Assembly: GCA_029262335.1 (NCBI GenBank)
Contig: JAJCZQ010000026.1
Coordinates: forward strand, 24,443-88,442
Length of the DNA stretch: 64,000 nt
Direction of reading: 5' to 3'
Source of the DNA: Deltaproteobacteria bacterium
GTDB lineage: Bacteria; Desulfobacterota_D; UBA1144; Nemesobacterales; JAJCZQ01
In this document: in pieces, positions 21,364 through 45,725 of the stretch
Numbering within the stretch: position 1 is the first letter of the stretch
How the letters are laid out: the number at the start of each line of letters is the position of its first letter
The notes under the pieces: generated by a model
The model's input: the letters and a program-made list of their open reading frames with translations, nothing else
Database searches by the model: none
What the model was told of the DNA's origin: nothing
Position numbers and translations under genes: made by a program

Positions 21364-22470
21364 ATGGATAAAATAAGGCTTGGATTATCTGCAACACTAT
21401 CAGGTATCTACAGCCTTCAGGGTATTGATTCACTAAATGGATTAATACTCTGGTCCGAATATCAAAACAGCCTTGGCGGAATAGAAGTAAAAGAGTTTGG
21501 GGGAAATCTTCCTGTTGAACTGGTCTTTTTTAACGACGAGAGTAAAGCTGAAAAAACTGCCAAAATTACTTCACGGTTAATTAACGAAGAAAATATTGAT
21601 CTGCTTCTGGGGCCGTATTCAAGCAGCCTGAGCCTTGCCTGTGCCAAAGTGGCTGAAGAATCCGGAAGAATTCTCTGGAATTACGGTGGTTCCACGGATG
21701 AAATATTAAGCGATGAATATAAAAACACGGTTACATTTATTACGCCGGCAAGCCGTTACTTTGACCCCTATCTCAATTTTTTAAAAGATATTAGTCCCAA
21801 TGATCTTCGTATTGGGGTTGTATATGCCGAAGACAGCGGGTTTTCACGCCAGGTATCCGGTGGGGCCGTTCGTTTCTGCAAAGAAAACTCTATATTTCAC
21901 AAAACATACAAATATAAAAGCGGCACCGATGATTTTTCAGCCATCGCTGACCAGATAAGAAAAGACTCCATTAAGACCGTAATTGGAGTTGGCAGGTTTC
22001 ATGACGATCTAAGGTTTGCTTCTTACCTTAAGGGGTTAAACGTATGCCTTCCCGGCGCCAGCATAGAGGAGTTTAAAATTAAACTGGGAAAAGACAGCGA
22101 AGGTTTCTGTTCCATATCCCAGTGGGAGCCCAGGATAAATATAATTCCTGATTTTGGTATAGATTCTGCTTCTTTCACAGAGCTTTATTCAGCCCGTTTT
22201 GGCAAAATTCCGGACTACGTTTCGGCCCAGTCATTTAACATTGGGAATATTCTTACACATTTTATAGAAACCCTTGGTACTGTTGATGAACACAGGTTAA
22301 GAGATGAGATAGTAAATTCCGGATTTAATACATTTTATGGTGAATTTTCAGTTGGATTAACCAATAAATTTCAGACCGGCCATAAGACCGTTGCTACCCA
22401 ATGGCAAAATGGGAAAAAGGAGATCATCTATCCCCCCGAGCATTCAACAGCTGAATATGTTGAACCCTGA
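21364..22470 (+). CDS. Branched-chain amino-acid-binding (LivK/AmiC-fold) protein with no evident signal peptide
   Basis: Begins directly at the fold (KIRLGLSATLSG). LLGPYSS and QWQNG motifs. Confidence 0.8.
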   Translation: MDKIRLGLSATLSGIYSLQGIDSLNGLILWSEYQNSLGGIEVKEFGGNLPVELVFFNDESKAEKTAKITSRLINEENIDLLLGPYSSSLSLACAKVAEESGRILWNYGGSTDEILSDEYKNTVTFITPASRYFDPYLNFLKDISPNDLRIGVVYAEDSGFSRQVSGGAVRFCKENSIFHKTYKYKSGTDDFSAIADQIRKDSIKTVIGVGRFHDDLRFASYLKGLNVCLPGASIEEFKIKLGKDSEGFCSISQWEPRINIIPDFGIDSASFTELYSARFGKIPDYVSAQSFNIGNILTHFIETLGTVDEHRLRDEIVNSGFNTFYGEFSVGLTNKFQTGHKTVATQWQNGKKEIIYPPEHSTAEYVEP

Positions 22471-22553
22471 TAAAAACAAGGGCAAGTCAATGCGTGCACT
22501 GACTCGCCCTATGGAGGATGGGGAATGAAAGCTTATAGATATATCTTCGTTAA
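22471..22553 (-). ncRNA. Candidate sigma54/NtrC-dependent small RNA with anti-SD seed
   Basis: sigma54 site upstream, seed UUUCAUUCCCCAUCCUCCAU, then a 14-bp terminator hairpin and U-tract. Confidence 0.55.
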
Positions 22554-22562
22554 TATATTAAT

Positions 22563-22579
22563 TGGCAATAATCATGCCA
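22563..22579 (-). promoter_or_regulatory. sigma54 -24/-12 promoter
   Basis: Minus strand TGGCATGATTATTGCC (GG-N10-GC). Confidence 0.7.
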
Positions 22580-22762
22580 TTAGACCATTTTTTAAGAAGA
22601 AATCCCCACCACAAAATAATTTATTAATCATCCCAACCAGTTACTAGTGATACATAAAATTTATTATAAATATATTCTAAACTAACTAAGAATAATTAGC
22701 TAGTCATAATTTGTATTATTTTAAACAATTTTTGCGCATGTTTACCCAACAACAATATTATA

Positions 22763-22779
22763 TGCCCTTTTTTTGGGAA
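22763..22779. promoter_or_regulatory. NtrC-like upstream activator site
   Basis: TTCCCAAAAAAAGGGCA (minus) resembles TGCCCAAAAAAGAGGCA upstream of glnB and lies 185 bp from the -24 GG. Confidence 0.5.
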
Positions 22780-22925
22780 TAAATCATTTATTTTAAATAT
22801 TCAGGCTAATTTTTAACTATAAAAACATTACAAATTCGTATTTCTGTAAAAAAATAACCCCATTCACCTTCAACTGTTAGAACAGGTTAAGTAAATGGAG
22901 CTATCACAAAGAAGGCTACATAGTA

Positions 22926-23771
22926 TTATTCAATTTCAAAGCATGTTTCGTTTGCCGTCTGGTTTCCACTCACTTCTCTTGCCAGCACCTCAAGCTTCAC
23001 CTCGTCTTCCGATGAAAACAGCCCTGATGGCAGCTCGACCATTGTTTCATTAGGGGCAAGATCATAAGTCAGTTTAAGCGGTGTGGGCTCTTCTCTCTCA
23101 ACCACGACCTGATAACCAATTATTGTAATATCTGTTGAATTCTGGGGTGATCCAAGTTCTGGGTGTGAAGTTGTAACCGGGTCCCATGAAATAACGGGAG
23201 GATCACTTACTGCCGGAGCCTCTTCCTCATCACAATCATCTGGAGTCGCCACTCCTGACACAGAAAGCACAGGAGGTGCTGGTATTAAATGCGTAACCTC
23301 TGCTTCTCCGCTAAGTTCCTGTCCGTCTAAAGTCAGTCCCTCAACTTCATAGATACCCTCTGGAAATCTTTTAAAGAAATCGTCCGGATCCAGTTCATCA
23401 AATGTGGGCTCGGCACTTTCAAAAAACAGTTCGGTAAGGCCCTGCCTCGCAAGACGGCCCCTGTTTCTGATAACAAGAATACGCCTTTCTTTGGTGTCCT
23501 CTATAACAAGTTTCCTCCAGGGTTCCCCGTCAATAAGGGCGTGAATTCCGAGGTCACCGTCAGTGTTGTTAAGCTCAAAAAAGATATTTACAACATCAAA
23601 CGGTATCTCATTACCGTCATCATCATCTTCTTCTGCCATGGCAAATGGAGTACCAAGAGTGAGAAGAAAAACTAATACTGAAAAAAGCAGTACCGAAAAG
23701 GTAAATCCGATCCTTTCCCTGTTACTGATAAAACTTCTGAAATGCAACGAAAATAATCTTAAAGAATTCAT
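22926..23771 (-). CDS. Acidic exported hypothetical protein
   Basis: Signal/TM segment, then LFFESAEP...FPEG.Y and a C-terminal Ig/FN3-like region. Confidence 0.8.
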   Translation of the reverse strand: MNSLRLFSLHFRSFISNRERIGFTFSVLLFSVLVFLLTLGTPFAMAEEDDDDGNEIPFDVVNIFFELNNTDGDLGIHALIDGEPWRKLVIEDTKERRILVIRNRGRLARQGLTELFFESAEPTFDELDPDDFFKRFPEGIYEVEGLTLDGQELSGEAEVTHLIPAPPVLSVSGVATPDDCDEEEAPAVSDPPVISWDPVTTSHPELGSPQNSTDITIIGYQVVVEREEPTPLKLTYDLAPNETMVELPSGLFSSEDEVKLEVLAREVSGNQTANETCFEIE

Positions 23772-38321: not shown

Positions 38322-38338
38322 TGCCCAAAAAAGAGGCA
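38322..38338. promoter_or_regulatory. NtrC-like binding site upstream of glnB
   Basis: TGCCCAAAAAAGAGGCA (TGC-N11-GCA), 184 bp upstream of the -24 GG. Confidence 0.6.
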
Positions 38339-38520: not shown

Positions 38521-38536
38521 TGGTATGTTGTTTGCA
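38521..38536 (+). promoter_or_regulatory. sigma54 promoter of glnB-glnA
   Basis: TGGTATGTTGTTTGCA, GG-N10-GC. Confidence 0.75.
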
Positions 38537-44883: not shown

Positions 44884-44899
44884 TGGCATGTTAATTGCC
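44884..44899 (+). promoter_or_regulatory. Second (distal) sigma54-like site, near-palindromic
   Basis: TGGCATGTTAATTGCC. GG-N10-GC is readable on both strands. Confidence 0.5.
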
Positions 44900-45039: not shown

Positions 45040-45055
45040 TGGCACGCACATTGCA
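45040..45055 (+). promoter_or_regulatory. sigma54 promoter of the pilin gene
   Basis: TGGCACGCACATTGCA, a near-perfect consensus match. Confidence 0.85.
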
Positions 45056-45095: not shown

Positions 45096-45725
45096 ATGTT
45101 TAAACAAATGAGAAATAGTAAGGGTGAAAAAGGTTTTACCCTGATCGAGCTTTTGGTTGTAGCGGCTATCATCGGAATCCTGCTTGCTTTAGCAATTCCA
45201 AACCTTCTTAAGGCAAGAATATCTGCGAATGAAGCAAATGCAGCAAAAATGATGCAGACATTAAGAGATGCTGAAGGAGAGTATTTTGAGCAGGATTTAA
45301 ATGATCTTAATGGTAGAGATTATACAGATCAGATTGGCCCTGTTGCATTAGGTACGGCAAATACACTTCGTGATCCTGACGGCCTTGCAACTAATGAACT
45401 GGACTCCTTAATCGATTCATCTTTTGTAGGTGCAGATGAAGCAGCTGGTGGTCCAACGGGCCAGGGCACCGCAGGTAATGCCTGCCTAACACCTAAAGCC
45501 GGGTACTGCATTGCTTATGATACTGCAAACGCACCTGCTGTAAACAATATATTTCAGGGTTATGGATGGACTGCTTCTATGGTGTCATTTAATAGGACAG
45601 GCAGGAATAATTATGCTGTTTATACAGACGGCGTAATCAGATGCGACTTAGAAGATGCTGGAACAACTGCAAGCGGGCAACCGGGTACTTATACTGCTGA
45701 TGTAACTTCACCTGGATGTAATTAA
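45096..45725 (+). CDS. pilA: Type IV pilin
   Basis: Prepilin site KG|FTLIELL with E5 and C-terminal Cys pairs. Confidence 0.88.
   Translation: MFKQMRNSKGEKGFTLIELLVVAAIIGILLALAIPNLLKARISANEANAAKMMQTLRDAEGEYFEQDLNDLNGRDYTDQIGPVALGTANTLRDPDGLATNELDSLIDSSFVGADEAAGGPTGQGTAGNACLTPKAGYCIAYDTANAPAVNNIFQGYGWTASMVSFNRTGRNNYAVYTDGVIRCDLEDAGTTASGQPGTYTADVTSPGCN

Follow-up and report, generated by a model that had tools for sequence, protein, structure and literature searches.

The Locus and the Predicted Transcript

We analyzed a stretch of 64,000 nucleotides (hereafter, the window) from the genome of an uncultured, Dadabacteria-like bacterium and found, between two convergent genes, what is very probably a real and previously undescribed small regulatory RNA (sRNA) gene. 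All of its elements, a sigma-54 promoter, a C-rich seed, and an intrinsic terminator, are contained in a 455-bp spacer and read on the minus strand. The spacer is bordered by a gene for a Peripla_BP_6 protein (21364..22470, plus strand; Pfam and NCBIfam), convergent with the sRNA, and on its other flank by a 281-aa open reading frame (ORF; 22926..23771, minus strand). The Peripla_BP_6 gene is the last in the order rsmD-coaD-aminotransferase-binding protein (PBP), and its stop codon abuts the sRNA terminator. We consider it likely that the minus strand carries an independent sRNA gene of ~80 nt with a sigma-54 promoter and a terminator of its own, and that its exposed anti-Shine-Dalgarno (anti-SD) seed acts in trans.

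The predicted transcript is ~82 nt long (22553..22472, minus strand), with the start near 22553 placed by promoter geometry. It contains no AUG and folds at –23.4 kcal/mol (z –4.0), leaving the first 40 nt unpaired. The single-stranded seed UUUCAUUCCCCAUCCUCCAUA (22530..22510, minus strand) lies inside this leader of ~40 nt predicted to be without structure, and its core CAUCCUCCA occupies 22520..22512 on the same strand. In the short transcript, the predicted unpaired probability is 0.46 to 1.0 at 20 of the 21 seed positions, falling to 0.11 at the last one, which begins the hairpin, and 0.8 to 1.0 over UUCCCCAUCCUC. A terminator scan called an intrinsic terminator on the minus strand, formed by a 14-bp hairpin with the loop CACG (22510..22479) and the U-tract UGUUUUU (22478..22472).

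The original prediction, made from the letters of the window, had proposed a gene-free minus-strand transcript with an exposed anti-SD seed, ending in a 14-bp hairpin and U-tract whose G–U pairs fit only this strand. The features described were all present in the sequence where they had been placed. Two G–U pairs of the hairpin become A–C on the plus strand, and among nine distinct close sequences, 126 of 126 pair cells were standard on the minus strand but 83.3% on the plus strand, since all changes confined to one side leave a G–U pair on the minus strand; two changes were compensatory. The RNA had also been called undescribed, and the database supports this: no part of the region matched Rfam 15 (the best scores in 22300..23000 had E-values of 0.29 and 3.3, far below gathering), and the scan of the whole window returned two tRNAs only, while promoter, seed, and covarying hairpin were all kept in relatives. 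Together, these comparisons establish the gene, its strand, its terminator, and its promoter consensus, as well as their conservation, at the level of sequence.

The window belongs to a genome of 2.09 Mb (38.5% GC, 51 contigs, 92.6% complete) that encodes one rpoN (one Sigma54_DBD match) and seven clear enhancer-binding proteins (Sigma54_activat matches of 210 to 251 bits). The window also codes for NtrB-like and NtrC-like proteins, glnB, glnA, gdhA, a type IV pilin, and RNase III.

A Family of Related RNAs

In what follows, G000 denotes the window's own genome, other G numbers genomes, L numbers loci, and f1 to f8 the families of one order. An exact 24-mer of the seed was found at eight metagenome loci and two genome loci. 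At all 11 loci with the 24-mer, the element occupies the same convergent position at rsmD-coaD-aminotransferase-PBP (two are cut by contig ends), and the upstream genes differ. The seed was invariant in the 10 close loci, and seed and hairpin were far better conserved than the neighboring coding sequence.

A DNA search with the 491-nt spacer in 41 relatives returned G001 and one weak match only. As such a search saw almost no relatives, a covariance model was needed to reveal the family, and we built one (R1) from the seed plus hairpin; it scores 102.4 bits at 22469..22542 of the window. R1 matched 38 of the 101 genomes of the order and 38 of the 120 of the phylum, all matches falling in one order. 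By family, the matches were 30/33 in f2, 3/15 in f7, 1/37 in f8, 1/1 in f3, 1/2 in f5, and 1/4 in f1 (the window's own genome not counted), with 0/2 in f4, 0/6 in f6, and 0/19 in the only other family examined in the phylum. Many genomes carry two copies. Among 54 distinct full-length members, in an alignment fitted to the covariance model, which itself favors pairing counts, 98.4% of 743 pair cells were standard and 10 of the 14 pairs were changed on both sides, a result reached by none of 500 shuffles.

The order of CAUCCUCCA, a short linker, and the hairpin is near-invariant in the family, and the nearly invariant core CAUCCUCCA is kept across 56 members, some of which have CAUCCUCU. The members fall into types by their seed: type B, which includes the window, has UUCCCCAUCCUC; type A, which makes up most f2 copies, has CCAUCAUCCUCC; and type C has the tandem CAUCCUCCAUCCUCC and is represented by two copies elsewhere in the host genome. 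By these comparisons, the RNAs form a previously undescribed family of sRNAs, which was detected in one order only and has at least three seed and promoter types.

The two type C copies in G000 lie on C6 (L109:467-549, minus strand) and C24 (L110:479-566, plus strand) and score 28.6 and 21.6 bits with R1; they have a hairpin and U-tract of their own and TTGACA/TTGACT sigma-70-like promoters. The type A RNAs (f2 loci L017 to L043) appear to be ~150 nt long, start after a conserved TTTATAyT box, and carry near the 5′ end GGGUGAU(GG), complementary to their own seed AUCAUCC.

The Sigma-54 Promoter

The minus-strand sigma-54 promoter claimed for the sRNA is TGGCATGATTATTGCC (22579..22564), with the –24 GG at 22578/22577 and the –12 GC at 22566/22565. 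It agrees with the sigma-54 consensus (TGGCAC-N5-TTGCW) in having the GG and GC elements exactly 10 bp apart, and such boxes are more frequent than expected by chance: TGGYAY-N5-TTGC has five matches in the window compared with 0.52 expected, and none of 100 shuffles reached five. Genome-wide, 27 of the 54 matches to the sigma-54 pattern lie outside ORFs of at least 80 aa, in a fraction that makes up 12% of the genome (binomial p ~9e-12). The promoter is also conserved, being present at all six loci of the window lineage (the window, L004, L005, L006, L009, and L010); its sequence is unchanged in L004, L005, L006, and L010 and differs at a single spacer position in L009.

We then counted promoters by seed type in 56 distinct members for which the upstream 220 nt were available. 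The pattern TGG[CT]A[CT]-N5-TTGC was found within 220 nt upstream in 18 of the 23 type B members (UUCCCCAUCCUC), in none of the 27 type A members (CAUCAUCCUC), and in one of the six others. The boxes of type B have at least nine different spacers and lie 60 to 150 nt from the seed; since the spacers differ, the boxes are apparently held by selection and not one copy inherited by recent common descent. Judged by these boxes, sigma-54 control is a property of type B.

Under the model that we favor, the sRNA would be transcribed in vivo from the sigma-54 promoter and end at its own intrinsic terminator, and, given the promoter class, would need an enhancer-binding activator. The unstructured 5′ half would expose the C-rich seed, the core CAUCCUCCA of which is an anti-SD sequence. 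The partners of the sRNA in trans are most likely ribosome-binding regions rich in G or further G-rich RNA strands, and pairing with them would block translation or alter RNA folding.

Upstream Elements and the Candidate Activator

Upstream of the promoter, a conserved AT-rich block on the minus strand (22703..22737) comprises GCGCAAAAATTGTTT (22737..22723) and ATACAAATTATGAC (22716..22703) and is a candidate enhancer (upstream activating sequence) for a sigma-54 activator. The 15-mer with CAA-N3-TTG is found at the same offset (–158 from the promoter) in five of the six window-lineage loci, and GCGCAAAAATTGTTT resembles ATACAAAAATTGTCA, located upstream of the pilin promoter (–126). In f2, the type B sRNA has a tandem enhancer, TGACAAnTTTTGTCA plus TGCAAAAyATTTGyC, ~120 to 135 nt upstream of the promoter; the tandem was seen at 12 of 13 loci outside the window lineage. 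The 14-mer palindrome GACAANTTTTGTCA occurs 11 times in five f2 genomes, compared with zero for the reversed control: five copies stand in front of the sRNA, four precede pilin genes (N_methyl) driven by sigma-54, and the remaining two precede the gene for a 1571-aa TPR protein. Pilin genes of Geobacter, Myxococcus, Pseudomonas, and Desulfovibrio are known to be under the control of sigma-54 activators (PMC3333781, PMC2725144).

In the window's own genome, the pilus link is weaker. There, what GCGCAAAAATTGTTT has in common with the sites of the pilin promoter and of two response-regulator genes is limited to the CAA-N3-TTG core, GCGCAAAAATTGTTT lies farther from its promoter (–158) than the other sites (–113 to –126), and the motif is absent at two pilus-related promoters (pilB-like and pilin-like). 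The bare CAA-N3-TTG was not enriched in the host genome (six sites compared with ~3.9 expected), and NCBIfam did not tell which of the seven enhancer-binding proteins is of the PilR type. On the sequence patterns, a pilus-type regulator is a better lead than NtrC, with a chance a little short of even; NtrC is given a small share, and the rest goes to another of the seven enhancer-binding proteins.

Related patterns were seen at other genes. The type IV pilin gene of the window (45096-45725) is preceded by two sigma-54 boxes, at 44884-44899 and 45040-45055; the distal one, TGGCATGTTAATTGCC, matches the sRNA promoter at 14 of 16 positions, and ATACAAAAATTGTCA lies between the two. At the f2 glnB loci (L089 to L093), the divergent gene beside glnB has an MshEN domain (cyclic di-GMP [c-di-GMP]-binding, PilB-type) and is driven by a sigma-54 promoter whose enhancer, TGACAAAAAnCGTCA plus ATGCGCA, carries a variant of the palindrome.

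Candidate Targets

To rank targets, we computed the duplex energy over the 2016 start regions of the host genome (mean –7.9, SD 4.0 kcal/mol). One target had been proposed from the window, the ribosome-binding site (RBS) of the 11272 gene. This RBS reads as quoted and pairs at –22.2 kcal/mol, ranking third of 2016; the homologues in four relatives (G001, G028, G046, and G100), however, show generic SD pairing only, at –12 to –20 kcal/mol, and the target is not conserved.

Other candidates were rejected. The best site of the genome (–27.7) belongs to an outer-membrane-channel-like gene (Phenol_MetA_deg, G000:C9:98014), no homologue of which was found with this query in five relatives. The exact 12-mer AGGATGGGGAAT has seven matches in five f2 genomes, five of which are the sRNA gene itself. 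For the f2 pilin, ABC, and TPR genes that are co-regulated with the sRNA, the translation initiation regions (TIRs) gave –5.5 to –15.5. A site inside amtB was set aside as well and is described below with the nitrogen question.

The best lead to a putative target is a 15-nt perfect match downstream of an orphan c-di-GMP riboswitch. AGGATGGGGAATGAA (G000:C39:64190-64204) is the sole perfect complement of at least 14 nt outside the sRNA locus; by chance, 0.027 perfect 15-mer matches are expected per genome. It lies 94 nt downstream of one of the four c-di-GMP-I riboswitch aptamers in the genome (70 bits) and forms the 5′ arm of the riboswitch terminator. The riboswitch (G000:C39:64012-64246; L187:1501-1735) consists of the aptamer and a terminator with U8, faces a convergent GGACT-domain gene, and is followed by no conserved ORF.

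The order of MqnA-like gene, riboswitch, and GGACT gene is also found in G001 and G048. In G001 the AGGATGGGGAATGAA site is identical. In G048, which belongs to another family and has an identical sRNA seed, the platform has diverged, yet TGGGGAATGAAA is found at the same distance, with a duplex energy of –29.1, as low as none of 1321 background chunks. TGGGGAATGAAA overlaps the end of the convergent ORF in G048, and, the riboswitch loci being orthologous, the strand is perhaps kept for the riboswitch's own switching. The f2 and f7 riboswitches gave no significant pairing signal. Those of G084, G100, G028, and G046 were not significant, with best background fractions of 0.0038 and 0.017 before correction for ~50 tests.

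A tentative extension of our model, to which we assign a low probability, is that the sRNA pairs with the platform of the orphan c-di-GMP-I riboswitch, mimicking its C-rich strand, and acts as a trans antiterminator or is itself sponged. Such pairing would couple a sigma-54 (pilus-type) signal to c-di-GMP, and the family would consist of anti-SD RNAs with promoters swapped between sigma-54 and sigma-70. If both the pilus and the c-di-GMP links are true, three layers that control surface behavior would be joined: the sRNA itself, a riboswitch for a second messenger, and an enhancer-binding protein. Another aptamer of G000 (C31:5255-5359) precedes a sigma-54 box and a Peptidase_C25 gene.

Weighing the Alternatives

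Besides the model-fitted alignment and the weaker pilus link noted above, several observations weigh against a trans-acting sRNA under sigma-54 control. The –12 element of the promoter is TTGCC and not TTGCW, the last position being C instead of A or T. Five of the 23 type B members have no sigma-54 box, and L007 and L012 have instead TTGATA or TTGCTT, a 17-nt spacer, and TATAAT, so sigma-54 control is not universal; the sigma-70-like boxes in some type B members indicate that the input of the RNA has been rewired more than once. We found no Hfq in the 92.6%-complete host genome, and no target was conserved across the order among the candidates compared. Finally, conserved G-rich boxes upstream of the promoter, complementary to the seed, have no explanation in this model.

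The G-rich boxes, CTGGTTGGGATGATTA (22640..22625) and GGTGGGGA (22610..22603), lie within 22603..22640 on the minus strand and are kept in the six window-lineage loci. They would be accounted for by two nested transcripts: a longer sigma-70-type RNA (e.g., from TATAAT at 22668..22663), in which the G-boxes mask the seed, and a short form with free seed made from the inner sigma-54 promoter. Consistent with this, the predicted fold from 22640 buries the seed, GGUGGGGA pairing with UCCCCAUC and the unpaired probability of the C-run dropping to 0.03 to 0.17; type A in f2 has the TTTATAyT box followed by the GGGUGAU(GG) complementary to its own seed; and L007 has a consensus sigma-70 promoter followed by GGGUUGGGAG. 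The pairing shows no covariation, however, as both partners either are invariant or change without compensation, and RNAalifold does not predict the helix of G-box and seed; this holds for the type A helix of 5′ G-box and seed. The promoter scan calls no sigma-70 site at 22668, and protein binding at the boxes, or bending of the DNA that separates enhancer and promoter, could explain them equally well. We regard nested transcripts as doubtful.

An antisense role in cis is, in our assessment, unlikely. In this reading, the binding-protein operon would lack a terminator of its own and read through the sRNA gene, and the two RNAs, pairing perfectly, would be cleaved or titrate each other. In its favor, each of the 11 loci that hold the 24-mer is convergent, with the terminator next to the stop codon; no T-tract follows the hairpin on the plus strand; and RNase III is encoded in the window. 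Against this, the neighbors of the orthologous f2 sRNA are different genes (inositol monophosphatase, DUF3298), an antisense overlap would need far less conservation of the seed than is seen, and the linkage is perhaps only inherited gene order.

We next considered the proposal that the RNA is a nitrogen-starvation sRNA activated by NtrC, as part of an Ntr regulon with glnB-glnA and amtB. The window encodes the NtrB-like and NtrC-like proteins, glnB, glnA, and gdhA, and the A-tract site TTCCCAAAAAAAGGGCA (22779..22763, minus strand) is identical in 13 of 15 core positions to the glnB site TGCCCAAAAAAGAGGCA (38322..38338). The sites had been placed at 185 nt and 184 nt from the respective –24 GG, and both distances are correct as measured. 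Furthermore, amtB contains a perfect 12-nt complement of the seed, and the amtB and glnB TIRs rank 51st and 78th of 2016. Among the 27 intergenic sigma-54 candidates of the host genome, however, TGC-N11-GCA is found upstream of only amtB (–113) and glnB (–199). An Ntr signature is thus recognizable in this genome, and the sRNA lacks it: TGC-N11-GCA is absent at all six window-lineage loci, and TTCCCAAAAAAAGGGCA has TTC instead of TGC in its left half, while the GCA half is replaced in all five relatives (L004, L005, L006, L009, and L010). In f2, the glnB site lies ~90 nt upstream and not 184, showing that equal spacing is not a conserved rule. The match in amtB runs along the codons VGGWGA, and synonymous changes disrupt it in G048, in which the seed is identical (–18.0 compared with –27.1).

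The site claimed for NtrC is therefore probably not an NtrC site, and activation of the sRNA by NtrC under nitrogen starvation appears quite improbable. What stands of the original prediction is an undescribed sRNA with a sigma-54 promoter, a terminator, and a seed; the label of nitrogen and NtrC, having no conserved NtrC-type site behind it, is not supported and should be dropped. Two observations concern the nitrogen genes themselves: glnB-glnA has at 38521-38536 of the window the sigma-54 promoter TGGTATGTTGTTTGCA, the same box as in the f2 relatives, and amtB (G000:C25) has TGCTTAATAAATGTGCA 113 nt upstream of its sigma-54 promoter.

Least probable by far is that the conserved element belongs to the plus strand, as the gene of a 40-aa small protein (22525..22647) or as the 3′ untranslated region or terminator of the binding-protein operon: although the element always follows the same operon and the ORF stands behind GGAGG-N7-ATG, an ideal RBS, this motif is perfect because it mirrors the seed, 16.7% of the hairpin cells are mismatched on the plus strand with all one-sided changes tolerated only on the minus strand, the hairpin is not followed by a T-tract, and seed and terminator persist in members at other loci, where this operon is absent. 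The 40-aa ORF had been named as the feature that, if conserved, would speak against the sRNA. It has no Pfam match, and across ten loci (the window and L004 to L012) the ORF from that ATG varies from 3 to 40 aa, with lengths of 40, 23, 24, 8, 3, 3, 26, 3, 3, and 7 aa; as far as the sequences tell, there is no conserved ORF on either strand.

Relation to Known Small RNAs

Stand-alone sigma-54 sRNA genes with an upstream enhancer include Qrr1-5 (activated by LuxO), NrsZ (NtrC), CrcZ (CbrB), and GlmY (GlrR), of which CrcZ and GlmY work by titrating proteins. They belong to other phyla and differ from the window sRNA in sequence and structure; none of them was matched in the Rfam scan of the sRNA region.

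Pairing with G-rich start regions is the obvious mechanism to expect, by analogy with two characterized RNAs, CJnc230 and NfeR1. CJnc230 (FlmE) of Campylobacter jejuni is an RpoN-dependent sRNA of ~90 to 100 nt that represses translation at ribosome-binding sites (PMC11187230). The window sRNA resembles it in RpoN dependence (here predicted), in similar length, in a single-stranded anti-SD stretch, and perhaps in a link to the regulon of a surface appendage, to which CJnc230 is reported to belong (PMC11187230). In contrast, CJnc230 is described there as mainly processed from the flgE mRNA, whereas the window sRNA has its own sigma-54 promoter (PMC11187230). The two have no sequence likeness (no Rfam match), and the appendage link of the window sRNA is to type IV pili, indirect, and seen in a sister family.

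NfeR1/alpha-r14 of rhizobia is a trans-acting RNA whose ultraconserved C-rich anti-SD motifs CCUCCUCCC silence mRNAs at their start regions (PMC10746234). It shares with the window sRNA a C-rich anti-SD motif, and its reported tie to nitrogen status and NtrC (PMC10746234) makes it the closest match to the nitrogen idea. It differs in having three hairpins, each with CCUCCUCCC unpaired, compared with one hairpin and the linear seed CAUCCUCCA here, and in a sigma-70 promoter that is reported as LsrB-activated and NtrC-repressed, compared with a sigma-54 promoter and no conserved NtrC site (PMC10746234). With one hairpin where three are required, the window sRNA was not assigned to alpha-r14/NfeR1.

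The riboswitch lead also has parallels. SrsA of Clostridioides difficile is reported to pair with leaders that also hold a type I c-di-GMP riboswitch; it depends on sigma-B and targets mRNAs for conserved small proteins, whereas here the pairing is predicted and no conserved ORF follows the riboswitch (PMC13753753). The merRNA of Bdellovibrio is described as a c-di-GMP riboswitch RNA without a conserved downstream ORF, like the orphan riboswitch with the best seed match (PMC3627812).

As judged from its sequence features, the window sRNA is thus of a known kind, sigma-54-driven and with an anti-SD seed, and is the founding example of an order-wide family; in the literature on Dadabacteria small RNAs and in the Rfam scans of the window, we found no regulatory RNA described for the phylum. 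The family is defined by comparative genomics alone, in strand, structure, seed, and promoter class, and it gives metatranscriptome studies a defined RNA to search for. That related sRNAs sharing one anti-SD core stand behind either sigma-54 or sigma-70 promoters is a clear natural example of an input rewired and an output kept. The analysis also corrects an attractive but unsupported reading in terms of nitrogen.

Two further observations were made on the host genome. Four more intergenic sigma-54 boxes (G000:C2:5763, C17:67368, C19:66000, and C50:17676) have no ORF of at least 80 aa within 400 nt downstream and could belong to other sRNAs or small genes. The Peripla_BP_6 protein next to the sRNA (21364-22470) lacks a signal peptide, its sequence starting directly with the domain, and so may be a cytoplasmic ligand sensor and not part of a transporter.

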